DNA of 64,000 bases from a virus. Each line of letters opens with the position of its first letter. The stretch's first letter is position 1. Position numbers and translations under genes: made by a program. The stretch lies in the IMG/VR virus record IMGVR_UViG_3300032288_005579. One strand, given 5' to 3'. The notes beneath the pieces were generated by a model that was not told the DNA's origin, did no database searches, and was given only the letters and a program-made list of their open reading frames with translations. Shown piece by piece: positions 48,923-64,000 of the stretch.

Positions 48923-51900
48923 ATGAAGATATTCGACCCTAAATTAACAGGAAGCATAGAGTTTCAATCTCCGGTAAATTTTACTGGATCGATGCATGGT
49001 ACCGCGTCATGGGCGACTAATGTGGTAAACGGAGGGGGAGGATCACTAAGCGGAGGCGAACAAAACTACATAGCCCGTTGGGAATCTTCGAATACGCTAA
49101 CAACCAGTTCCATATACGAGGATCCTACAACACCGAGCGTCGCGATAGGCGGCGTACAAAACTTCGATCCCACAAACCCAGAAACTTTACTCGTCTCTGG
49201 ATCAGGCATCAACGTCATAAGTGGAAAAGTCGACATAGATAACTATACCCAATTAAATATCCAGAATACTTTCGCTGGAACTGCTGCTTCTTCGGACATA
49301 GTTGCCACAAACGACACTGGCGACGAGTTTGGAAATTACGTAGATCTTGGAATAAACAGTAGCCTTTATTCCGGATTTTTGGGTTCTCCCAACGAATCGT
49401 ACTTATACAATACGGGTTCTAACTTACTAATTGGAAACATAACTAGAGGAGAAAATGCGAATGTCAAACTATTTGCAGGAAACGATGCGACAGTGTTTCC
49501 GCTAATAGTAACGGGATCTCAAGTTTTGATAACAGGATCGATGTTCGGTACCTCCAGTTGGGCAGCTAGTTCGTCTGTGAACATATCTTCGTCTTACGCT
49601 TTAAGCGCATCATTCGCAGTAAGCGCATCTAATGCTCGCAGTGCGTCTTACGCAATCAGTTCCTCTAATGCGTTAAGTTCTTCTTACGCTATAAGTGCTT
49701 CAAACGCAAGTACAGCTTCTTACGTAGTCAATGCATTAACGGCGTCATTCGTAAATAACCTAAGTCAAAATCTTTCTATAACAGGATCTGTAACGATAAG
49801 TGGTTCTGCACAACAAGAACTCATAATATTGGGAGACCAACACTTAACAGGATCCTTATTCGTATCCAACTCAATAGTGCTAACTCCATCAGGAAGTTTA
49901 CTGGTGGCCTCAGGTTCTATAAGAGCGTTGTCTTTGACTGGAAGTTTGTTCGGAACTGCGTCTTTCGTATCCGGATCCGTATTCACTAGCGAAAATAGAG
50001 CGTTATCGTCTTCAAACGCAGTAAGTGCTTCTTACGCAATAAGCTCTTCTAATGCGTTAAGTTCTTCTTACGCTATAAGCGCTTCAAATTCAAGCACGGC
50101 TTCTTACGTAGTCAATGCGTTAACGTCCTCCTTCATAAACAATTTAAACCAGAACCTATCTATAACTGGATCAGTAAGAATAAGCGGTTCTGCTGCAGTA
50201 GAGCTATTCGTTTTAGGAGATCAACACGTGACGGGATCCCTATGGGTATCAAGTTCAGTAATCGTAACTCCCTCTGGAAGTATAGTGGTCGCCTCAGGCT
50301 CTATAAGGGCACTATCGATTACTGGAAGTTTATTTGGTACGGCGTCCTTCGTATCTGGTTCTGTATACACTTCTACAAACCCCGCGCTTTCCGCATCTTA
50401 CGCTTTTAGTTCTTCTTACGCGATAAGTTCCTCTTATTCTATAAGTTCGTCTTACGCAATAAGTGCTTCTTATTCCATAACATCGTCTTACGCCGTAACA
50501 TCGTCTAACTCTGTAAGTTCTTCTTACGCAATAACTTCTTCTTACGCTATAAATGCGTTTCCTTACAGCGGAAGTTCTGCGCAAATAACAGGATCTCTAT
50601 CAATAACTGGATCTCTTGCTTTATATTCTGCCTTAGATCCAGATTTATTGGGATCAAATACAGAAACAGCGTACTACTTTGTATCGAGGTCCCAATACAA
50701 TACCGCAGTTAACGACATATTCTATAGAAGCGCAGGAAATCTATGGAGCCAGGACTTTTTACAGCAAGCTGTAGATACAGGTATAATCTACGGTGGTATA
50801 GTGTCATTCACAGGTAGCGTAGAAGATACAGCGCCGTACACAACAGAAGTTAGAGTGACACCAGGCGTTGCTTTACTCATAGATCACAACGCCGAAACAG
50901 GATCGAAGGGGGAAACAGTACCCACTATAGTTAATTTTGGACCCATAACCCAATCTTTCAAAGATCAAGTTACTGGATCGCAAGTACATTATCTGTATAT
51001 AGATCAAGCGGGTACCCTTCAGTATCAAACTACCATTTTCAATACCTCGCAATATCACTCTGAATTTCCTCTGGGAGTCATATTCTCTTTGACGACTGAG
51101 AGCATATCCTCTTACGGAGATCTTAGAGTTACCGCTTACGGACAAACTCAACAATCGGGAGAATTTGTTAGAGCTTTTGGTCCTTTAAAAGTAAATGGAT
51201 TTGATATAAGTCCAATAAGCACGACTTTGAGTGCAAGCATAGCGTCAGGAAAATCTTACAGATTCGGGGGTTTTTACACACAAAACCCAGAAACCCCCTC
51301 TAGTTACAATTCTCCTGCGATTCCAACGGCGAGTTTCGTTAGGGTGTATAGAGATCCTGCAGTTTTAGGTGGATATAAAGCCCAAGTTTACGATAGCGGA
51401 CTTCCATTTAAAGGAATAGATCCCACGAAATACGACGATGGCAGTGGAACTTTACAAAGCGTAGGATCCGGCGAATTCACAATACAGCGTCTATTTCAAG
51501 GCGTTGTGAACGGCATAACATACGTTTACTACGGTCAAAACAAATATACAAGTTTAACCGCGGCTCTAAATAGCGTAACAACCGAAGATTTTTCAGAATC
51601 TCAAACTTCTATAATCACGCTTCCTTTTATAGGATACATTATAGTAGAAGGCACTGCGACGAGTTTAGCGGACACAAACACGAGTAGGATCATAAACGCT
51701 GGTCTGTTTAGAAACACCGCGGGTTCTTCAGGCGGCGGAGGTGCAGCTGTTACTAATTTGAACGATCTTGGAGACGTCGTAATAGGCGGAGCGGTTAACG
51801 GTCAAGCGCTTATATACAACACAGGAAACTGGATTAATGGAAATCCTACTTCAGCGTCTTACGCGAGTAGCGCTTCTTACGTAAATGGATCGATATTCGA

Positions 51901-53701
51901 TTCTAATAATCCTGTTCTCTCTTCTTCTTACGCTCTTACAGCGTCGTACGTAAACAGTTCTTCATACGCATACACCGCTTCTTACGTAACTGGATCGTCA
52001 TTCAATTCGACAAATTTAGCGCTATCTGCGTCTTACGCGATAACCGCGTCTTACGCTTTAAACGGAGGCGGAGGATCAGGCGTAAATGTGCAAGACGAAG
52101 GCGGCACGCCGTTCTCAGCAACGACTTTGAATTTTCAAGGCGCAGGAGTAACAGCGGCCGACGCAGGCGGAGGAACTGCAACGATAACGATATCAGGCGG
52201 ATCTGGGGAAACTTTCCCCTACACAGGTTCTGCTATCGTAAGCGGAAGCGTACGTGTAATAGAATCAGGATCTACGGGATTAGAGGTCACGGGATCTTCA
52301 AGGATTACTGGAAGTTTGATAGTGACAGGAAGCATAACAACTGACCATGGATTTACAGCGTTGTCTGTCACTGCGTCTTTCGTGTCGTCTTCTCAAATAA
52401 CAGGAAGTCTTTTTGGAAGTTCTTCTTTTGCTACAACTGCTTCTCACGCCTTAACGGCCTCTTACGTGCTTAACGCGCCCAGCTCAGATCCTTTCCCCTA
52501 TACAGGTTCTGCTGTGATAAGCGGTAGTTTGATACTCACAGGATCTTTTAGAACCCTCGCGTCTGGAACAGAGGGCGCAGCCGTATTCGGTGACGTTAAC
52601 ACATATTTAGAAGTGTTCGCGCAAAATAGAAACGCTGGAATAAGCGCTTCTACTGATATAGTCGCCTACAACGATCAAGGAAACAAGAGCCAATACTACG
52701 TCGATATGGGCATAAACGGATCTGGAATGGATCCTGCCTACACTTTTGGAAGACCCAACGACGCTTACGTGTACAATACAGGTGGAGATCTATTCATAGG
52801 AAACTCTACTGGATTTTATCAGCCTTCACTAACTTCGCAATCGCTACACCTGTTTGCCAATGCTGCAGGAATTCCAGATGTTACGCTGTCAGGCAGTAGA
52901 GTAGGCATAGAAAAATCTTCTTCGTTGAACGCCACTCTTGACGTGAACGGAAACACCATGATTAGTGGCACTCTGTTTGTGTCCGGAGCACACTACTTAG
53001 ATTTAGATGTCAAAGGAAACTCAGCGATATCAGGAACTCTTTTCCTAACCTCTTCAAATTCAACAGAGTATTTAGCACTGTGGATGAATGGGGATTCCGA
53101 AATATCTGGAACGATATACATCACTTCGTCTAGAAACAATACATCTATAGAATCCATAGGGGACATAGTGATTAGCGGAAGCATATACGCTTCAGCTTCA
53201 TTCGGTCCGGATGTTCTTAGAGCAGTAGGAAATACGAAATACACTGGATCTTTCATGATCACGAGCTCGGGAGTTTCTACAGAGAGAGAACTTGTCGTGA
53301 ATGGTGAAGCAGTTGTCACAGGATCATTAATAGTATCAGGTTCCGGTGGATTCGGAGTTTTCTCTAAGGGATTCACACTAGCTGACTTAACAAGTACGTT
53401 CACCGTTACCGGATCTTATCACGTCTGGAGAGCGCCGTTCTCTTGCTCGGTGGTCGGAATATGGGCTTTCAAATCAGGAAGCACAGATCCCCAAATAAAC
53501 GCAAGACGTAGCGGATCTGGTGCATCTTTACACTTAGCAACGAATCTAACGATCGCTAACGATAATCAATGGACTTCTGGAGGAAGCGTACAGAACACAA
53601 CTTACGCAGGCGGCGATTCTCTAGAAGTGATAATATCGGGAAGCACACAATACCAAGTGTCCGTACAGGTGGACTTCATAAAACTACAACGTAGAACATA
53701 A
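48923..53701 (+). CDS. Long fibre protein with TGS/SSY-rich repeats
   Basis: 1592 aa with recurring ITGSLxVTGS and SSSYA motifs. Shares modules with the 45025 gene. Confidence 0.8.
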   Translation: MKIFDPKLTGSIEFQSPVNFTGSMHGTASWATNVVNGGGGSLSGGEQNYIARWESSNTLTTSSIYEDPTTPSVAIGGVQNFDPTNPETLLVSGSGINVISGKVDIDNYTQLNIQNTFAGTAASSDIVATNDTGDEFGNYVDLGINSSLYSGFLGSPNESYLYNTGSNLLIGNITRGENANVKLFAGNDATVFPLIVTGSQVLITGSMFGTSSWAASSSVNISSSYALSASFAVSASNARSASYAISSSNALSSSYAISASNASTASYVVNALTASFVNNLSQNLSITGSVTISGSAQQELIILGDQHLTGSLFVSNSIVLTPSGSLLVASGSIRALSLTGSLFGTASFVSGSVFTSENRALSSSNAVSASYAISSSNALSSSYAISASNSSTASYVVNALTSSFINNLNQNLSITGSVRISGSAAVELFVLGDQHVTGSLWVSSSVIVTPSGSIVVASGSIRALSITGSLFGTASFVSGSVYTSTNPALSASYAFSSSYAISSSYSISSSYAISASYSITSSYAVTSSNSVSSSYAITSSYAINAFPYSGSSAQITGSLSITGSLALYSALDPDLLGSNTETAYYFVSRSQYNTAVNDIFYRSAGNLWSQDFLQQAVDTGIIYGGIVSFTGSVEDTAPYTTEVRVTPGVALLIDHNAETGSKGETVPTIVNFGPITQSFKDQVTGSQVHYLYIDQAGTLQYQTTIFNTSQYHSEFPLGVIFSLTTESISSYGDLRVTAYGQTQQSGEFVRAFGPLKVNGFDISPISTTLSASIASGKSYRFGGFYTQNPETPSSYNSPAIPTASFVRVYRDPAVLGGYKAQVYDSGLPFKGIDPTKYDDGSGTLQSVGSGEFTIQRLFQGVVNGITYVYYGQNKYTSLTAALNSVTTEDFSESQTSIITLPFIGYIIVEGTATSLADTNTSRIINAGLFRNTAGSSGGGGAAVTNLNDLGDVVIGGAVNGQALIYNTGNWINGNPTSASYASSASYVNGSIFDSNNPVLSSSYALTASYVNSSSYAYTASYVTGSSFNSTNLALSASYAITASYALNGGGGSGVNVQDEGGTPFSATTLNFQGAGVTAADAGGGTATITISGGSGETFPYTGSAIVSGSVRVIESGSTGLEVTGSSRITGSLIVTGSITTDHGFTALSVTASFVSSSQITGSLFGSSSFATTASHALTASYVLNAPSSDPFPYTGSAVISGSLILTGSFRTLASGTEGAAVFGDVNTYLEVFAQNRNAGISASTDIVAYNDQGNKSQYYVDMGINGSGMDPAYTFGRPNDAYVYNTGGDLFIGNSTGFYQPSLTSQSLHLFANAAGIPDVTLSGSRVGIEKSSSLNATLDVNGNTMISGTLFVSGAHYLDLDVKGNSAISGTLFLTSSNSTEYLALWMNGDSEISGTIYITSSRNNTSIESIGDIVISGSIYASASFGPDVLRAVGNTKYTGSFMITSSGVSTERELVVNGEAVVTGSLIVSGSGGFGVFSKGFTLADLTSTFTVTGSYHVWRAPFSCSVVGIWAFKSGSTDPQINARRSGSGASLHLATNLTIANDNQWTSGGSVQNTTYAGGDSLEVIISGSTQYQVSVQVDFIKLQRRT

Positions 53702-54524: not shown

Positions 54525-54974
54525 ATGGCAAACGAATTCATAGCCAGGAATGGCATAATAGCAAGAAGTAATTCCGTAATAACGGGATCCCTATCGGTTA
54601 GTTCGTCTCTTTCTATAGGGGACATACAACCGTCTGCCACGATAGGCAGATTGGACGCATCAAACGACATAGTAGCTTTCAACAGCTCTGATAAAAGATT
54701 CAAAACGAACATAACTCCCATAGAGAATGCGCTTGAAAAAGTGCAGAAGATAAACGGCGTTGAATTCGATTGGATACCCGATCCGGTGAATCACGGGTAC
54801 CAGGGTCACGATGTCGGAGTGATAGCTCAAGAGATCGAGGAGGTCGTCCCAGAATTAGTAAGGACTAGGAACAGCGGTTACAAAGCCGTTAAATACGATA
54901 AGATAGTAGCACTACTAATAGAAGCGATAAAAGACCTTAAGAAAGAGATAGACGAACTGAAGAAAGGGAAGTAA
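54525..54974 (+). CDS. Mini-fibre with a peptidase S74 intramolecular chaperone domain
   Basis: SSDKRFKTNI..I.NALEKV.KINGV.FDW...GVIAQEIEEVVPELV...AVKYDKIVALLIEAIKDL, after only about 55 N-terminal residues. Confidence 0.9.
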   Translation: MANEFIARNGIIARSNSVITGSLSVSSSLSIGDIQPSATIGRLDASNDIVAFNSSDKRFKTNITPIENALEKVQKINGVEFDWIPDPVNHGYQGHDVGVIAQEIEEVVPELVRTRNSGYKAVKYDKIVALLIEAIKDLKKEIDELKKGK

Positions 54975-54976
54975 CC

Positions 54977-57900
54977 ATGCCTATACCCGCTTCAGGTCCG
55001 ATATCGATGAGTATGATGAATACGGAGCTGGGTAGGATACCCAATGCTCCTGTATCGATATTGGCCGGGGGACTGGTTCCCATAGAGGGATCTTTGTTTT
55101 GGTTGGGAGGACAGAGCGGTAGTTTAAACCAAACTGCGCCCCACTACTTCAGCGAATGGTACAATTATACTCCTAACAATTCCCCCACTCCTACACCTAC
55201 AGTATCTGTAACTGTAAGCGTTACTCCTACAGTTGGTATATCTTCTACGCCTAGTGTGAGCGTGACTCCGACAAAGAGTATCACTCCTACTATAAGCATA
55301 ACACCTACCATAAGTGTAACTTCTACGATCAGCGTTACTCCCACAATCAGCGTAACTCCAACTATAAGTGTAACTAAAACAATCACACCTACGATTAGCG
55401 TTACACAGACTACAAGCGTGACTGCTACTATAAGTTTAACTCCTACTATAAGCGTTACAAGAAGCGTTAGCATTACTCCCACGATAAGTATCACGACGAC
55501 CGTTACCCCTACAAATACTGCTACTCCTACGATAAGTGTCACTCCCACCATCAGCGTCACTCCTACTATTAGTTTGACTCCAACAATAAGCATTACTTCC
55601 ACCATCAGTGTCACTCCAACTAGAACAGCGACTGTAAGCGTAACTCCCACGATAAGTATAACTCCTACTATAAGCGTAACTAGCACAATTACTCCAACTA
55701 CTAGTGTAACTCCTACTATTAGTATAACACCTAGCATAAGTATTACGCCGACAATCAGCGTCACTCCTACTATTAGTATTACATCTACGATTAGCGCTAC
55801 AGCTGGAATAAGTCTTACTCCTACGGTAAGCATTACACCTACAATCAGTGTTACATCCACTATAACTCCTACAATAAGTACTACTCCCACTATAAGCATT
55901 ACACCTACTATTAGTATAACAAGCAGCATTACTCCCACTGTTAGTATTACACCCACCATTAGTGTTACTTCAACAATTAGCGTTACTCCTACCGTAAGTG
56001 TAACTAGAACAGTAACTCCTACGATAAGTGTTACTCCTACAATCAGTGTTACTCCTACCGTAAGTGTAACTAGTACAATAACTCCTACATTAAGCATTAC
56101 ACCTACTAATAGTATAACTCCTACTATAAGCGTAACTAGCACAATTACTCCCACTACTAGTGTAACTCCTACTATCAGCATTACTCCTACAATTAGCGTT
56201 ACATCGACGGTAACTCCCACTATTAGTGTAACACAGACTATTAGCGTAACTCCCACAATTAGTGTAACAACTACTGTTACGCCGACTATAAGTATTACTC
56301 CTACCATCAGTGTTACTTCTACAATAAGCTCAACCCCGGGAATAAGTCTCACTCCTACTGTGAGTATCACACCCACGATAAGTATAACTCCTACTATAAG
56401 CGTAACTAGCACAATTACTCCCACTACTAGTACTACGCCTACAATATCTATCACTCCAACTATAAGCATAACTTCCACTCCAACTCCTACTATTAGCGTC
56501 ACTCCCACAATTAGCATTACTCGAACCGCTAGTATAACTCCTACAATAAGCATAACCAATACGACTACTCCTACCATTAGCGTAAGTCCCACTATAAGTG
56601 TTACGCCAACTATTAGTATCACGCCTACAATAAGCATAACAAGTACCATTACGCCTACTATTAGCGTGACTAAAACAGCTACGATTACTCCAACAATCAG
56701 TATAACTCCTACTAGGACAATAACTCCAACGATAAGCGTAACTACAACGATTACTCCTACAATTAGTGTTACACAGACCGCAAGTATTACGCCTACAATA
56801 AGCGTAACTAGCACAATTACTCCTACAATTAGTGTAACGCCTAGCATGAGCATTACTTCCACAATTAGCGTTACGCCTACTATAAGTGTAACTAGAACAG
56901 TTACTCCCACGATCAGCATCACTCCAACTATAAGTGTTAGTCCAACGATAAGTGTAACAAGCACCGTTACGCCTACAATTAGTGTTACGCCGACTATAAG
57001 CGTTACTCCCACTATTAGTGTCACTTCCACAATAAGCGCAACTCCTGGAATAAGTACAACACCTACTGTCAGCATTACACCCACTATTAGTGTAACCGCG
57101 AGCATTACTCCAACTATCAGTATAACTCCAACTATTAGCATTACACCAACAATCAGCGTCACTCAAACGGTTAGTGTTACACCCACTATTAGTATTACTC
57201 AAACTGCTAGCATTACACCAACCACTAGTATAACTCCTACAATAAGTGTGACTAGTAGCGTTACTCCTACTATAAGCGTTAGTGCTACGGCGAGTGTTAC
57301 TCCTACTATAAGTGTAACTAATACAATAACACCAACAATCAGTATCACTCCGACTATATCAATCACTCCTACCATAAGTCTTACCCCCACAATCAGCGTT
57401 ACTAGATCTGTTACGCCTACTATAAGCGTCACTCCCACCATCAGCATTACACCGACTATAAGCATCACGCCTACTATAAGTGTAACTAGTACAATTACGC
57501 CTACCATAAGTGTAACTAGAACCGCAACTCCTACAATAAGTGTTACTCCTACCATAAGCGTAACACCTACCATAAGTGTAACTAGAACCGCAACTCCTAC
57601 AATAAGTGTTACTCCTACAATCAGCATCACTTCTACTATAACGGCTACTACCAGTGTTACACCCACAATTAGTATTACACCTACTATAAGTGTAACTAAA
57701 ACTGTAACTCCTACAATTAGTATTACTCCTACTATAAGTGTAACACCGACTATAAGTGTCACATCAACAGTTACCCCTACTATAAGCGCTACTCCTACGA
57801 TTAGTATCACTCCGACTATATCAATCACTCCTACCACAAGTATCACTCCGACCATTAGTATTACCCCCACAATCAGTGTTACCAGAACAGCAACTATTAC

Positions 57901-59857
57901 GCCTACGATCAGTGTTACTCCCACAATTAGCGTTACACCAACTATCAGTGTGACTCCTACGATTAGCATTACTCCTACTAGAACGGCCACTATCAGCGTT
58001 ACACCCACTATTAGCGTGACGCCAACCATAAGTGTCACTTCTACAATTACTCCCACAACGAGCGTTACTCCTACGATATCTATTACGCCTACGATTAGCG
58101 TAACCAAAACCATTACGCCAACAATAAGCATTACTCCAACGATCTCTATAACTCCCACTATTAGTATTACTTCTACTATAAGTGTTACGCCAACCATAAG
58201 TGTCACTTCAAGCGTTAGTGCAACTCCGACAATAAGCATTAGTCCTACTAGAACTGCTACAATAAGCGTTACACCGACTATAAGCATAACGCCCACAATA
58301 AGTGTAACTATAACTGTTACTCCCACTATTAGTATCACGCCTACGATTAGTATAACGCCCACAATAAGTGTAACTAGTAGCATAACTCCTACTATCAGCG
58401 TTACTCAAACCGCTAGCATAACTCCTACAATCAGTATTACTAGAACTGTAACTATAACTCCTACAATTAGTGTTACGCCTACAGTAACTCCTACAATCAG
58501 CATTACACAGACTTCATCAATTACTCCCACTATCAGTGTAACACCTACAATTAGTATTACGCGAACTGTTACTATAACTCCTACCATAAGCATAACGCAA
58601 ACGGCAACTATTACTTCAACGATCAGTGTAACTCCAACTATAAGTGTAACTCAAACAACTACAGTAACTCCGACAATTAGTGTTACGCCAACTATCAGTA
58701 TTACTAGAACCGCAACTATTACGCCTACTATAAGCATTACTCCTACAATAAGCATTACTCAAACTCCTACCATTACGCCTACTATTAGCATAACTCCTAC
58801 AACTACTATAACGCCAACCATCAGCATAACTCCTACAATCAGTATTACTAGAACCGTAACTATAACTCCTACTATAAGCATTACTCCTACAACAAGCGTT
58901 ACTCCAACTATATCTATAACTCCCACTATTAGCATAACTCCTACTATCAGCATTACACGTACTATAAGTGTGACTAGCACTGCTACACCAACGATCAGCG
59001 TAACTCCAACCATCAGCATTACTCCAAGTACCAGCGTAACTCCAACCATCAGCATAACTCCTACAATAAGTGTAACTCCTACAATTAGTATTACGCAAAC
59101 TGCAACCATTACTCCAACCATCAGCATAACTCCTACTATTAGTATTACAAGAACTCCTACCATTACGCCTACTATTAGCATAACTCCTACAACTACTATA
59201 ACGCCAACCATCAGCATAACTAGAACCGCAACTATTACTCCTACTATTAGCATAACTCCTACAATAAGTGTTACAAAAACTGCTACTATTAGCATAACTC
59301 CTACGAGGACAGCCACTATTAGCATTACACCAACAAGAACTCCTACCATTACACCTACTATTAGCATAACTCCTACGAGGACAGCCACTATTAGCATTAC
59401 ACCAACAAGAACTCCTACCATTACACCTACTATTAGCATAACTCCTACGAGGACGCCTAGTATTACGGCTACCCCAGTAACAGATCGCACGATAAATATA
59501 TATGTAAGTAATCAAGCGACTGTTACCATTAATGGACCTCTACAAACTTTTTATAAAATAGGAGTTGGAGGAAGCTGGACATTATTCAATAATACTTTTA
59601 ATAGTACAACGTGTACTAACCTTGGATCGGTATCGGTTCCTAACGGATCTTTGTTATATATCGGATTCCAAGACGCAAATAATGTAAACGTAGGTTTCGA
59701 TGCTGTGGCGCCCGGAACAAGTAGCACTACATGCCCTACTTTTACCGGTGTGGCTGACTACTGTAGAGATACATCTGATTGGTCTGATACTATAAATGCT
59801 AATGGTAGTAGAGCATTCACAATACAAGTAACAGGCGGAGAATATGTAGGTTGTTAA
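54977..59857 (+). CDS. Mucin-like Thr/Ser/Pro-repeat virion protein
   Basis: About 70-aa N-terminal domain (PASGPISMS..NTELG...FSEWY), about 1430 aa of TPTIS(V/I) repeats, and an approximately 120-aa C-terminal domain with four Cys. Confidence 0.85.
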   Translation: MPIPASGPISMSMMNTELGRIPNAPVSILAGGLVPIEGSLFWLGGQSGSLNQTAPHYFSEWYNYTPNNSPTPTPTVSVTVSVTPTVGISSTPSVSVTPTKSITPTISITPTISVTSTISVTPTISVTPTISVTKTITPTISVTQTTSVTATISLTPTISVTRSVSITPTISITTTVTPTNTATPTISVTPTISVTPTISLTPTISITSTISVTPTRTATVSVTPTISITPTISVTSTITPTTSVTPTISITPSISITPTISVTPTISITSTISATAGISLTPTVSITPTISVTSTITPTISTTPTISITPTISITSSITPTVSITPTISVTSTISVTPTVSVTRTVTPTISVTPTISVTPTVSVTSTITPTLSITPTNSITPTISVTSTITPTTSVTPTISITPTISVTSTVTPTISVTQTISVTPTISVTTTVTPTISITPTISVTSTISSTPGISLTPTVSITPTISITPTISVTSTITPTTSTTPTISITPTISITSTPTPTISVTPTISITRTASITPTISITNTTTPTISVSPTISVTPTISITPTISITSTITPTISVTKTATITPTISITPTRTITPTISVTTTITPTISVTQTASITPTISVTSTITPTISVTPSMSITSTISVTPTISVTRTVTPTISITPTISVSPTISVTSTVTPTISVTPTISVTPTISVTSTISATPGISTTPTVSITPTISVTASITPTISITPTISITPTISVTQTVSVTPTISITQTASITPTTSITPTISVTSSVTPTISVSATASVTPTISVTNTITPTISITPTISITPTISLTPTISVTRSVTPTISVTPTISITPTISITPTISVTSTITPTISVTRTATPTISVTPTISVTPTISVTRTATPTISVTPTISITSTITATTSVTPTISITPTISVTKTVTPTISITPTISVTPTISVTSTVTPTISATPTISITPTISITPTTSITPTISITPTISVTRTATITPTISVTPTISVTPTISVTPTISITPTRTATISVTPTISVTPTISVTSTITPTTSVTPTISITPTISVTKTITPTISITPTISITPTISITSTISVTPTISVTSSVSATPTISISPTRTATISVTPTISITPTISVTITVTPTISITPTISITPTISVTSSITPTISVTQTASITPTISITRTVTITPTISVTPTVTPTISITQTSSITPTISVTPTISITRTVTITPTISITQTATITSTISVTPTISVTQTTTVTPTISVTPTISITRTATITPTISITPTISITQTPTITPTISITPTTTITPTISITPTISITRTVTITPTISITPTTSVTPTISITPTISITPTISITRTISVTSTATPTISVTPTISITPSTSVTPTISITPTISVTPTISITQTATITPTISITPTISITRTPTITPTISITPTTTITPTISITRTATITPTISITPTISVTKTATISITPTRTATISITPTRTPTITPTISITPTRTATISITPTRTPTITPTISITPTRTPSITATPVTDRTINIYVSNQATVTINGPLQTFYKIGVGGSWTLFNNTFNSTTCTNLGSVSVPNGSLLYIGFQDANNVNVGFDAVAPGTSSTTCPTFTGVADYCRDTSDWSDTINANGSRAFTIQVTGGEYVGC
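55185..59478 (+). repeat. Degenerate coding repeat of 18-bp units encoding T-P-T-I-S-(V/I), with 4-aa variants
   Basis: Continuous over about 4.3 kb; roughly 240 units estimated from length. Codons are shuffled. Confidence 0.95.
59286..59454 (+). repeat. Exact 72-bp tandem duplication (about 2.3 copies)
   Basis: ctattagcataactcctacgaggac starts at 59286, 59358 and 59430. Confidence 0.85.
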
Positions 59858-59942: not shown

Positions 59943-61199
59943 ATGGCAAAAATATTTGTTTCGATAGCTTCATACAGAGATCCAGAATTACTTCCTACTT
60001 TAAGAGATTGTATCGCTAACGCCGATCAACCAGATAATCTGGTATTCGGTATATGTTGGCAACACGCAAAAGAGGACGAGTGGGATAACTTAGATCAATT
60101 TAAAAAAGACAAAAGGTTCAGGATACTTGACATAGATCACAAGGAATCAAAGGGCGTTTGTTGGGCAAGGAATAAAATAGGGTCTTTATATAAAGACGAG
60201 GACTATTATATGCAATTGGATTCTCACCACCGTTTCATACAGGGTTGGGACTCCAAATTAAAGGACATGATAGGTTATCTACAGTCCCAGTGTTACGAAA
60301 AACCCATACTCTCTACCTATCTGCCTTCCTATTTTCCTGAAAAAGATCCAGCAGATAGAACTCAAGAGGTTTGGTTTTTAAACATAGATAGGTTTTTACC
60401 AGAGGGCGCAGTATTCCTACGTCCACAGGGTTTAGACGGATGGAGAGATATGAAAGAGCCAGTTAGATCCAGATTCTTATCAGCTCACTTTATATTTACT
60501 CTTGGTAAATTCGCTAAAGAGGTTCCTTACGATCCGTATCTGTATTTTCACGGAGAAGAAACTTCATTGGCGGCTAGAGCTTTTACTCATGGGTACGATA
60601 TATTTAATCCTCACAGGATATATGTTTGGCACGAATACACGAGAGAAGGAAAGAAAAAACACTGGGACGATCACACCTCATATCCGGACCTTGATAAGAC
60701 CTCTTACGCGCGTTTTAGAAAGCTTTTTGCGATGGAAGGAGAATGTACTCCGTGTACGATAAAGAGTTTTGGAGAATTTTATTTTGGAAACGAAAGAACT
60801 CTTGAAGAGTACGAACGTTACGCGGGATTAAAGTTTAAAACCAGACAAATACACGAAGAGACTCTACAACACAAACCTGCCCCTATTGTAGGAGATTACG
60901 AATCGGGATTGAAGAGCAAAGTGAAAGTTTGTATAGACGTGTATAGAGGGGCTTTAAAAGAAACCGATTACGATACTTTCGTTATCGCTCTACTAGACGA
61001 AAACGGAAAGGATTTGTATAGACAAGACGCTGATAAAAACGAGATCTCTATGATCATGAATTCTGACATTAAAGACCAATTTGTGCACATTTGGAGAGAA
61101 TACGAAAGCCAAAAATTGCCTCACAGTTGGAGAGTTTGGCCCCATAGCGAATCAAAAGGTTGGATGGAAAGAATAGAAAACGTTATAAAATATGAGTAA
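59943..61199 (+). CDS. GT60-like polypeptide N-acetylglucosaminyltransferase (GlcNAc family), paralogue 1
   Basis: IFVSIASYRDPEL..TL, GVCWARN, YMQLDSHHRF..GWD (DxH), FLSAHFIF, YDP.LYFHGEE.SLAARAFTHGYD and WHEY. Confidence 0.85.
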   Translation: MAKIFVSIASYRDPELLPTLRDCIANADQPDNLVFGICWQHAKEDEWDNLDQFKKDKRFRILDIDHKESKGVCWARNKIGSLYKDEDYYMQLDSHHRFIQGWDSKLKDMIGYLQSQCYEKPILSTYLPSYFPEKDPADRTQEVWFLNIDRFLPEGAVFLRPQGLDGWRDMKEPVRSRFLSAHFIFTLGKFAKEVPYDPYLYFHGEETSLAARAFTHGYDIFNPHRIYVWHEYTREGKKKHWDDHTSYPDLDKTSYARFRKLFAMEGECTPCTIKSFGEFYFGNERTLEEYERYAGLKFKTRQIHEETLQHKPAPIVGDYESGLKSKVKVCIDVYRGALKETDYDTFVIALLDENGKDLYRQDADKNEISMIMNSDIKDQFVHIWREYESQKLPHSWRVWPHSESKGWMERIENVIKYE

Positions 61200-62477: not shown

Positions 62478-64000
62478 ATGGCTAACATATCTTTTTACGG
62501 TTCGCACAACGCTGCGTATGTCGTAGAGAAAGACGGAGAGATTATACTAGTATTAGAGGTAGAGAGATTCTTAAACCACAAGAATAGTGGAATCGCCCAG
62601 TATAATTGTCCAAGAACTGACGATATTCTGTTTTTCGCAGAGTATATTCCTAAATGGATCATGAAAAAATTGGACATAGAAGAATTTGACAATTGCTTTT
62701 ATTCTAATAGCGATGTGATAATGGACGAAGTTCGTTATTGTTTACATAAAGCCATACCCGCCAAAAAATATACAGAGTGTTGGCATCACCAATCTCACGC
62801 AGCTGGAGCTTTTTATCAATCTAATCACAAGAAAGCATTGATATTCTCTTTCGACGGAGGAGGAAATGATGGAAAATTTTGTGTGTACACTTGCAATAGA
62901 GGAGAGTCTCCAAAATTATTGAAGAGCGTATTAAATCCTGTGCTGAATCATCCTCATATAGGTTATGATTTGGGATTTCCCTACATGGTATTAGCGCACT
63001 ATCTAAAAGATATAAAGTACGAAGATCTGGGAATGGGTAACTTAGTTTATCCTGGAAAACTTATGGGTCTTGCGTCATATGGAAAAGTTATTGAAGATTG
63101 GATACCCGCTTTCACAAAATTTTATAAGAGTAATCCAGATGGAGGAAATTATCACAGTAAAGTAAGCGAACTTTCTGAAGAAATTGGAGTAGTATTCGAT
63201 GTTAATAATCGTCTTGATGGACAAATCGCCTACGACATAGCGGCCACAACTCAGAGAGTGTTCGAAGATTGTTTCTTAGAAATCGCTAAACCCTATATTG
63301 ATGAGTACCCTGATTATCCCATTTGTGTAACAGGAGGATGCGGATTAAACATCATATTGAACACTAGATTAGTCACAGAATTAGAAAAAGAAGTTTTCGT
63401 AGGACCAGATCCAAATGATTGTGGAATTGCATTAGGAATGATGCTCAATTACTTGAAGCCAGCAAAACCTTACGATTCCACCTACTCAGGAACAGAACTA
63501 CTAGATATAGATACGCTTTCGGCTAAAATACAGGGCGTAGGATTCCCTATGAAGAGTCGAAGACTAAATCTTACAAATCTAGCAAAAGATATTGAAGCAG
63601 GCAAAATAGTGGGAGTAGCTAGAGGGAGATCAGAACACGGTCCTCGAGCACTAGGAAATAGAAGCATAATTTGCAATCCCGCAATCGCTAACATGAAAGA
63701 CGTGCTTAATGAAAAGGTAAAACACAGAGAGTGGTATAGGCCTTTTGCGCCCGTGGTTAGATTAGAAGATGTCAATAAGTACTTTGAATGGAATAAAGAA
63801 TCCAGATGGATGAGTTTTTGTCCCAAAGTAAAAGAAGAGTGGAAAAGCAGACTTGGAGCTATAACCCACGTAGATGGAACCGCGAGAGTTCAAACTGTTA
63901 CTAGAAAACAAAACGAATTCTTATACGATCTATTGACTGAATTTGAAAAGGTGACTGGCGTGGGAGTTTTACTCAATACCTCATTTAATGTGGACGGTAA
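62478..64000 (+). CDS. Carbamoyltransferase, NodU/CmcH/TobZ family, partial (runs off the window end; absent from the ORF track)
   Basis: GSHNAA...EVERF..HK, HHQSHAAGAFYQS, SFDGGG, GKLMGLASYG, TGGCGLN, NDCG.ALG, SEHGPRALGNRSI, KHREWYRPFAP, HVDGTARVQTV and LLNTSFN. Confidence 0.95.
   Translation, partial: MANISFYGSHNAAYVVEKDGEIILVLEVERFLNHKNSGIAQYNCPRTDDILFFAEYIPKWIMKKLDIEEFDNCFYSNSDVIMDEVRYCLHKAIPAKKYTECWHHQSHAAGAFYQSNHKKALIFSFDGGGNDGKFCVYTCNRGESPKLLKSVLNPVLNHPHIGYDLGFPYMVLAHYLKDIKYEDLGMGNLVYPGKLMGLASYGKVIEDWIPAFTKFYKSNPDGGNYHSKVSELSEEIGVVFDVNNRLDGQIAYDIAATTQRVFEDCFLEIAKPYIDEYPDYPICVTGGCGLNIILNTRLVTELEKEVFVGPDPNDCGIALGMMLNYLKPAKPYDSTYSGTELLDIDTLSAKIQGVGFPMKSRRLNLTNLAKDIEAGKIVGVARGRSEHGPRALGNRSIICNPAIANMKDVLNEKVKHREWYRPFAPVVRLEDVNKYFEWNKESRWMSFCPKVKEEWKSRLGAITHVDGTARVQTVTRKQNEFLYDLLTEFEKVTGVGVLLNTSFNVDG

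Follow-up and report, generated by a model that had tools for sequence, protein, structure and literature searches.

A 1,438-residue threonine/serine-register stalk in a probable fibre-tip accessory adhesin of a far-T4-type phage

What might a phage do with a protein of 1,626 amino acids (aa) that consists mostly of a two-residue repeat and is encoded directly behind a small tail-fibre gene? The question is raised by the gene at 54977-59857 (+) of the IMG/VR virus record IMGVR_UViG_3300032288_005579, analysed here as a stretch of 64,000 nucleotides (nt; hereafter the window, whose numbering is used for all positions). An initial annotation of this DNA had proposed an adaptor, a stalk and a receptor-binding tip that together form a very long whisker. 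Our analysis of homologues, predicted structures and gene context suggests that the product is probably a fibre-tip accessory adhesin with a hypertrophied, self-glycosylated spacer.

Three modules in one reading frame

The span is a single open reading frame (ORF) from ATG to stop, and its product divides into a 64-aa N-terminal domain (the anchor), a 1,438-aa stalk and a 124-aa C-terminal domain (the tip). Confidence of AlphaFold2 (AF2) models is given as the predicted local distance difference test score (pLDDT).

54977..55168 (+): anchor domain, residues 1-64; 63 homologous proteins and 133 viral-contig matches; AF2 pLDDT 55-69 when modelled alone
55169..59482 (+): stalk, residues 65-1502; delimited by composition, register, tandem repeats and a match to phrog_15511
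59483..59857 (+): four-cysteine tip, residues 1503-1626 plus stop codon; AF2 pLDDT 96.3; 10 representative homologues

The anchor carries the motif P4-x-S6-G7-P8-I9-S10-x-S12, followed by E17-L18-G19 and S59-E60-W61-Y62. The only cysteines of the whole protein (1546, 1586, 1596 and 1626) all lie in the tip and are kept in its homologues. The N-terminal motif, repeat stalk and four-cysteine C-terminus described in the initial annotation were thus all recovered from the translation and its residue positions. The comparisons show a real gene rather than a chance ORF in a repeat, because anchor and tip have homologues, the gene order recurs on two independent contigs and the peptide repeat is kept despite scrambled DNA. 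Reading the span as a non-coding repeat or as a minus-strand gene was rejected, because the plus-strand frame links anchor and tip, both of which have homologues; the long minus-strand ORFs and the strong negative GC skew in the span are by-products of the repeat.

The stalk is a run of 719 (T/S)-x dipeptides in which x is mostly Ile, Pro or Val. Thr or Ser occupies 99.2% of the even positions with zero register slip over all 719 dipeptides, and 47% of the positions in the other register are Ile, Val or Leu. Its composition (T 36.6%, I 19.3%, S 16.6%, P 12.7%, V 8.6%) amounts to 65.9% T+S+P over the 1,438 residues, with 30 Lys/Arg and not one D, E, F, W, Y, H or C. Repeat units, among them the hexapeptide TPTIS(V/I) and 22-aa (66-nt) and other super-periods, are all even in length, and the period changes along the stalk (6, 22, 12, 14 and 24 residues, with 6 and 22 dominant).

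At the DNA level the tandem repeats are 60-80% identical. The hexapeptides TPTISI and TPTISV, present in 65 copies each, are written in 56 and 53 DNA versions (77-80% nt identity), a pattern of kept peptide and scrambled DNA that points to conservation at the protein level. The longest exact DNA repeat measures 100 nt. Since the repeat DNA is scrambled, assembly collapse is a concern only at 59283-59454 in the distal stalk. Here 2.4 copies of a 72-nt unit stand in perfect tandem (100% identity; other repeats 60-85% identical), which reflects either a recent expansion or a site at which the assembly may have collapsed copies. Codon usage is also skewed: 209 of 239 stalk serines (87%) use AGY, compared with 27% in neighbouring genes, and Thr prefers ACT. 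The AGY bias might go back to the founding repeat unit or reflect a constraint acting on the DNA or RNA. Sequence searches of the PDB returned nothing significant, the sole match (E 0.0047) falling in the low-complexity stalk.

An anchor family behind S74 fibre genes

Directly upstream of the stalk gene, which starts 2 nt past the preceding stop codon, lies a small gene of the S74 family, an established intramolecular chaperone.

54525..54974 (+): S74 'mini-fibre', 149 aa; Pfam Peptidase_S74 E 7.5e-19, residues 55-113

This protein comprises ~55 aa of fibre end and the self-cleaving chaperone, with the predicted cut after S55 and before D56-K-R-F-K. Its PHROG matches are to the C-termini of many tail-fibre families, and its first 55 aa (the stub) align with the last 35-55 aa ahead of the cut site in long fibres.

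Searched alone, the anchor domain matched 63 proteins of 131-492 aa (57-78% identity) whose C-termini are mutually unrelated and include Laminin_G_3, MAM and Cys-rich domains as well as poly-T linkers. A scan of viral contigs gave 133 confirmed matches, from which 80 loci were retained. The resulting family of 144 proteins has a median length of 183 aa and the consensus M-x-[IL]-P-x-S-G-x-I-S-x-S-x-x-N-x-E-L-G-R ... S-E-W-Y, which the window's domain fits; N15, E17, L18 and Y64 are invariant in a 44-sequence alignment. No Pfam or PHROG family covers this domain.

The family is closely tied to S74 fibres. A same-strand S74 gene lies just upstream of the anchor-family gene in 70 of 81 sources, and in 60 of the 61 loci that have a full anchor domain and enough upstream DNA. 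As a background, S74 genes occurred in 4 of 80 loci selected for GT60-type glycosyltransferases, two of the four belonging to the window's own lineage. The two genes often overlap: the gaps are -17, -4, -1 or +2 nt, unless a small DUF7936 gene intervenes and widens the gap to ~370-390 nt. The upstream fibres range from 149 to >2,600 aa and have little in common beyond the S74 end. Among cultured phages, Vibrio phage BUCT194 has the S74-then-anchor arrangement with a more distant N-terminal motif. The linkage of this type of N-terminus to S74 fibres, which the initial annotation had given from recall, is therefore correct and strong.

The intervening gene is itself conserved. It encodes ~120 aa and forms a three-gene cassette with the fibre and anchor genes in 16 loci (L005-L008, L020, L024, L027-L029, L032, L035, L036, L041, L042, L045 and L072). 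Its copy in L020 matches Pfam DUF7936 (E 3e-14); the gene does not occur in the window.

A giant stalk is found in 3 of the 144 family members: the window's protein and its relatives in L001 (1,757 aa) and L002 (2,184 aa), two independent contigs with the same gene order. Within the anchor family, the giant stalk is specific to the window's lineage. The best-conserved parts among the three are the 149-aa S74 protein (100% identical to the window in L001, 89% in L002) and the anchor (99% and 93%), and stalk length differs in all three. The full identity of the S74 protein at 54525-54974 between the window and L001, compared with 59-90% for neighbouring proteins and 59-87% for the flanking fibre proteins, is unusually strong for a gene of a fibre module.

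The tip was modelled as an all-beta sandwich (pLDDT 96.3), with cysteines at domain positions 44, 84, 94 and 124 of a domain that spans ~115-124 aa in the family alignment. Structure searches with this model (Foldseek against PDB and BFVD, and VIA-align wide) returned beta-sandwich matches with Z at most 6.8, namely Ig-like domains, starch-binding CBM20/25/41 and pilin adhesins. These matches are generic and point to no particular ligand. When the tip was searched exhaustively without a profile, 10 representative homologues reached E 1e-3 or better, the top one being 69% identical. That closest tip belongs to P0067 (466 aa, on a 1.7-kb contig), where it follows a DUF5122 beta-propeller and a PT/ST linker. 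In P0074 (314 aa), two four-cysteine tip domains stand in tandem with poly-T linkers between them, and a further architecture joins Laminin_G, poly-T and tip. The tip domain thus turns up on very different carriers.

Anchor, stalk and tip appear to act as separate, exchangeable modules, because they recur in other combinations. Stalkless anchor+tip proteins exist (P0070, 177 aa; the L008 protein, 178 aa; and P0004-like proteins). By profile comparison the L001 tip is unrelated to that of the window, having weak PKD/SprB similarity, and the L002 tip gave no match to the window's at E 1e-3. Moreover, in L126 and L095 members of the window's tip family (hhalign probability 97-98%) end (T/S)-x stalks that begin with different N-termini and lie beside GT60 pairs. 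The modular adaptor and tip logic of the initial annotation is borne out by these stalkless proteins, the unrelated L001 tip and the occurrence of the tip family on other anchors.

Against 50,697 phage records, neither megablast with the locus nor tblastn with the tip, the window's anchor domain or a second variant of that domain gave a match; a third variant gave weak N-motif matches in Vibrio schitoviruses and nothing else. In a set of 5.8 billion proteins, no protein of 894-2,846 aa with this anchor domain or tip was present, which is weak evidence of rarity as repeat genes assemble poorly.

Glycosyltransferase genes beside the stalk

Downstream of the stalk gene, after a gap of 85 nt, the same strand encodes three putative glycan-modifying enzymes:

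59943..61199 (+): GT60-type glycosyltransferase 1 (PF11397); Pfam E 1.3e-72; phrog_24687 E 7.6e-146; 87-90% identical in L001/L002
61192..62460 (+): GT60-type glycosyltransferase 2, overlapping the first by 8 nt; Pfam E 9e-48; a paralogue, 42% identical to the first
62478..63998 (+): NodU/CmcH-type carbamoyltransferase, running off the window; Carbam_trans_C E 2.3e-55; Carbam_trans_N E 1.9e-23

Characterised PF11397/GT60 enzymes are polypeptide N-acetylglucosamine (GlcNAc) transferases. We scanned viral contigs for GT60 relatives and retained 80 loci. An ORF counted as a stalk if it lay within 10 kb and alternated strictly as (T/S)-x over 40 residues or more; 78 anchor-family loci without GT60 served as controls. 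Such an ORF was present in 28 of 80 GT60 loci and in 0 of 78 controls (Fisher p = 4e-10), and after clustering of the GT60 proteins at 70% identity in 10 of 17 clusters. In 11 of the 28 positive loci, a tandem GT60 pair on the same strand follows the ORF directly. Examples are found in L126 (1,174 aa, 968 of them alternating), L093 (1,021 aa) and L097 (>635 aa), and the N-terminal parts of these GT60-linked ORFs are unrelated, Gly_rich_2 and RCC1 propellers being two cases. The tandem GT60 pair is kept in many loci, and 11 of the 80 loci also encode a carbamoyltransferase, which in the window may tailor the glycan of the stalk.

This co-occurrence, which spans several phage lineages, is good contextual evidence and supports an action of the GT60 enzymes on (T/S)-x stalks. 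The mucin analogy drawn in the initial annotation is upheld in part: the two GT60 genes just downstream, the recurrent association of stalk and GT60 and the T/S/P-rich repeat agree with it, whereas the Ile+Val content and the strict register do not. Literature searches yielded no account of the anchor family, of phage stalks with (T/S)-x alternation or of protein-modifying GT60 enzymes in phages.

The stalk matches phrog_15511, a family of unknown function. Eight of nine other GT60-linked stalk proteins tested matched it too (profile positions ~190-350). By these matches, phrog_15511 looks like a family of repeat stalks whose members should include proteins of sequenced phages.

Proposed function, alternatives and genomic setting

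We regard as reasonably probable that the protein is a modular accessory adhesin of the tail-fibre module, with an anchor docked on the S74 stub, a GT60-glycosylated stalk as a tether and a tip held far from the particle. The 149-aa S74 protein would trimerise and cut off its chaperone, and the anchor would dock on the processed stub. In the cytoplasm, the two GT60 enzymes would O-glycosylate Thr and Ser of the stalk, and the carbamoyltransferase may then tailor the sugar. So coated, the stalk would be an extended, semi-flexible tether of ~360 nm at 0.25 nm per residue, or up to ~475 nm fully extended. A tip that binds glycans or surfaces could thus be held well away from the particle, which would widen the capture radius for a first, reversible host contact. 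The length arithmetic of the initial annotation is correct: at the mucin rise of 0.25 nm per residue, 1,438 residues span 360 nm, compared with its ~350 nm.

If true, phages would have their own mucin-type O-glycosylation machinery, built on enzymes best known from protists, and appendages far longer than any described tail fibre. The unannotated anchor domain would then mark widespread swappable adhesins on S74-type fibres and aid host-range prediction from metagenomes. A natural, very regular (T/S)-x polymer with cognate transferases would also offer a tractable system for the effect of dense O-glycosylation on polypeptide shape.

Several observations weigh against this proposal. Anchor similarity does not track the last 40 residues of the fibre (rho 0.09, with the same rho for the chaperone), although nothing can be learned from this co-variation test, since the two partners are either strongly conserved or often recombined. 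Modelled by itself, the anchor reached only pLDDT 55-69, a low confidence that would agree with folding on a partner and is no proof of it. XacN1-type jumbo phages also possess GT60 and carbamoyltransferase pairs, so that the enzymes could have another target, and in the one such phage examined no T/S-rich ORF lies within 9 kb of the pair. Ile and Val make up 27.9% of the stalk and form one face of a strict two-residue register, unlike in mucins; this suggests beta-type packing, for which 0.25 nm per residue may not apply. Finally, the fibre module of the window comes after the head genes, far from the baseplate genes.

The shape of the stalk admits three readings: a thread coated with glycans, a ribbon of several in-register chains that bury a hydrophobic face, or a solenoid. 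We favour the glycosylated, extended form because of the GT60 context, the lack of a confident compact fold and the scarcity of turn formers. A compact fold of the repeat region, named in the initial annotation as refuting, was not predicted with confidence: in an AF2 model of the anchor with 185 aa of stalk, covered by only three sequences and kept out of the fold searches for its low confidence, the stalk reached pLDDT 24-47.

A bolder version of the tether is doubtful, and we offer it tentatively. With the trimeric S74 stub as a template, three chains would bring their Ile/Val/Pro faces together in register and form a self-glycosylated filament of 0.4-0.5 micrometres, several times the virion length, with a continuous Thr/Ser face coated in phage-made (carbamoyl-)GlcNAc. 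Stalk and GT60 pair would then travel as a mobile cassette between the different anchors and tips of many aquatic phages, and the system would amount to phage-encoded, cytoplasmic mucin-type O-glycosylation.

It is unlikely that the stalk is instead a folded beta-structure, either a beta-solenoid or a trimeric in-register rod, with Ile, Val and Pro inside and rows of Thr/Ser hydroxyls outside. The roles of anchor and tip would be the same. With 18-22 residues and a rise of 0.48 nm per turn, a solenoid would be only ~31-38 nm long. Such a fold would accord with the slip-free alternation, the even repeat units, the Ile/Val/Leu-rich second register and the dominant 6- and 22-residue periods, as well as with the beta-strands that AF2 draws in the stalk. 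It is also in line with a sub-threshold match of the stalk protein to GMPPB_C (PF25087; 18.1 bits against a cut-off of 39 bits), which we take to be a left-handed beta-helix domain. However, those strands are drawn at very low pLDDT, Gly, Asn and Asp, which form tight turns, account for 0.7% or less (Gly 0.3%), and the period shifts do not suit the one uniform coil length of a beta-solenoid or TxT ice-binding-like repeat. A uniform solenoid is thus disfavoured by the near absence of these residues together with the changes of period. Slippage between ACN codons, which lie 6 nt apart, could moreover yield even-only indels without any selection for structure.

Less likely still is an action of the GT60 enzymes and carbamoyltransferase elsewhere (on phage DNA, on a glycan of the host envelope or on some other protein) that would leave the stalk an unglycosylated spacer. 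Characterised GT60 enzymes being polypeptide transferases counts against it, as does the co-occurrence of enzymes and stalks (28/80 against 0/78 loci, 11 directly upstream of the pair, 10/17 clusters, unrelated N-termini). No hydroxymethylase was found among the window ORFs scanned. On its side, 52 of the 80 GT60 loci have no stalk ORF within 10 kb, the XacN1 pair stands beside DNA polymerase and RNase H genes, and phage GT-A enzymes glycosylate DNA (bioRxiv 10.1101/2023.12.21.572611). In XacN1 itself (L081, a Xanthomonas phage, 213144-232496), a GT60 homologue 40% identical is followed by the carbamoyltransferase, and the large neighbouring ORF325 is not T/S-rich. GT60 and carbamoyltransferase may form a conserved two-enzyme unit with different targets.

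Very unlikely, lastly, is a protein that is no permanent part of the virion and acts as a transient fibre-tip cap or assembly factor, or as a soluble adhesin or decoy released at lysis: assembly chaperones are often encoded just downstream of fibre genes, those of Alteromonas phages have been proposed as transient fibre caps (PMC10579305) and the anchor alone lacks a confident fold, but S74 fibres already have their own chaperone, the Laminin_G_3, MAM, PKD/SprB-like and beta-sandwich tip domains of the family are cargo for binding and not for folding, and a 1,626-aa protein with two dedicated transferases is improbable as a chaperone.

Among known systems, the gp37-gp38 pair invoked in the initial annotation is apt in organisation, with a separate adhesin gene after the fibre and a conserved attachment part combined with a variable binding part, and fails at the level of homology. 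As in gp38 of the T2/T6/S16 type, the gene follows the distal fibre gene directly, and a small conserved N-terminal attachment part precedes a variable receptor-binding part that is swapped between relatives. Unlike gp38, the stalk protein has no Gly-rich polyglycine II (PGII) sandwich (its stalk holds 0.3% Gly and its tip is a conventional beta-sandwich), and unlike gp37, the partner fibre ends in a self-cleaving S74 chaperone. To our knowledge, no gp38 has a spacer, let alone one of 1,438 residues. Homology to Gp38_N (PF21721) was rejected, with no match up to E 10 for 32 family members and none for the window's domain; a 12% share of Gp38_N in an Atlas cluster (score 0.86) is a weak language-model lead only.

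The stalk resembles mucin-type O-glycoproteins and GT60 substrates (such as Trypanosoma cruzi mucins, Dictyostelium mucin-like proteins and Skp1) in its long Thr/Ser/Pro-rich tandem repeats and in the PF11397/GT60 homologues encoded alongside. It differs from mucins by its 28% Ile+Val and strict two-residue register. In further contrast to mucin systems, enzymes and presumed substrate are phage-encoded, would meet in the bacterial cytoplasm and have a carbamoyltransferase in their cluster. According to Freeman et al. 2023 (PMC10527164), as cited in PMC12619734, mycobacteriophage glycosyltransferases decorate the phage's own capsid and tail-tube subunits on short C-terminal extensions. On that cited account, the two systems would share phage-encoded glycosyltransferases that act on the phage's own structural proteins, whereas the presumed substrate here is a dedicated stalk, 1,438 residues long and part of a fibre accessory protein, the presumed enzymes are of GT60 type and the likely host group is different.

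The upstream protein has an S74 domain and S-D-x-R-x-K site like S74 fibres (K1F endosialidase, T5 pb1) and mini S74 stubs. Unlike the K1F and T5 pb1 fibres, it would leave only ~55 residues after the predicted cleavage, and the stalk protein has no S74 domain. The Ser/Thr/Pro-rich linkers of bacterial glycoside hydrolases and the poly-T linkers of the anchor family (P0010, P0011, P0068) are likewise spacers of hydroxy amino acids between a module and a binding domain; these linkers have 20-60 residues and no fixed register, whereas the stalk is ~25-70 times longer and strictly alternating. The T4 whisker (fibritin, wac) was rejected as a relative: no Pfam match was found beyond the sub-threshold GMPPB_C, and the composition of the stalk is incompatible with heptad coiled coils.

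Genes for terminase, portal, major head protein, SbcCD and a baseplate wedge protein mark the window as phage DNA. The major head protein shares 53% identity with its counterpart in the Flavobacterium myovirus vB_FspM_immuto, and Microcystis and Rhodothermus far-T4 phages match more distantly; by these similarities the source appears to be a far-T4-type myovirus related to a Flavobacterium phage. On the plus strand, two large fibre-like ORFs (1,298 and 1,592 aa) are followed by Gly_rich_2, the 149-aa S74 protein, the stalk gene, the two GT60 genes and the carbamoyltransferase. Two upstream members of this series are:

48923..53701 (+): 1,592-aa fibre-like protein; no family match in Pfam or PHROG; syntenic and 46-70% identical in L001/L002
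53714..54481 (+): Gly_rich_2 protein of the same fibre module, 255 aa; Pfam PF21722 E 1.7e-12

The first is a candidate for the main fibre into which the S74 stub would plug. The second, a separate gene two genes upstream of the stalk gene in the window, is fused to a (T/S)-x stalk in other GT60-bearing phages (L099:199-3489 and L156:1143-5126). An RCC1 beta-propeller is fused to such a stalk in the GT60-bearing L114 (5369-9937).

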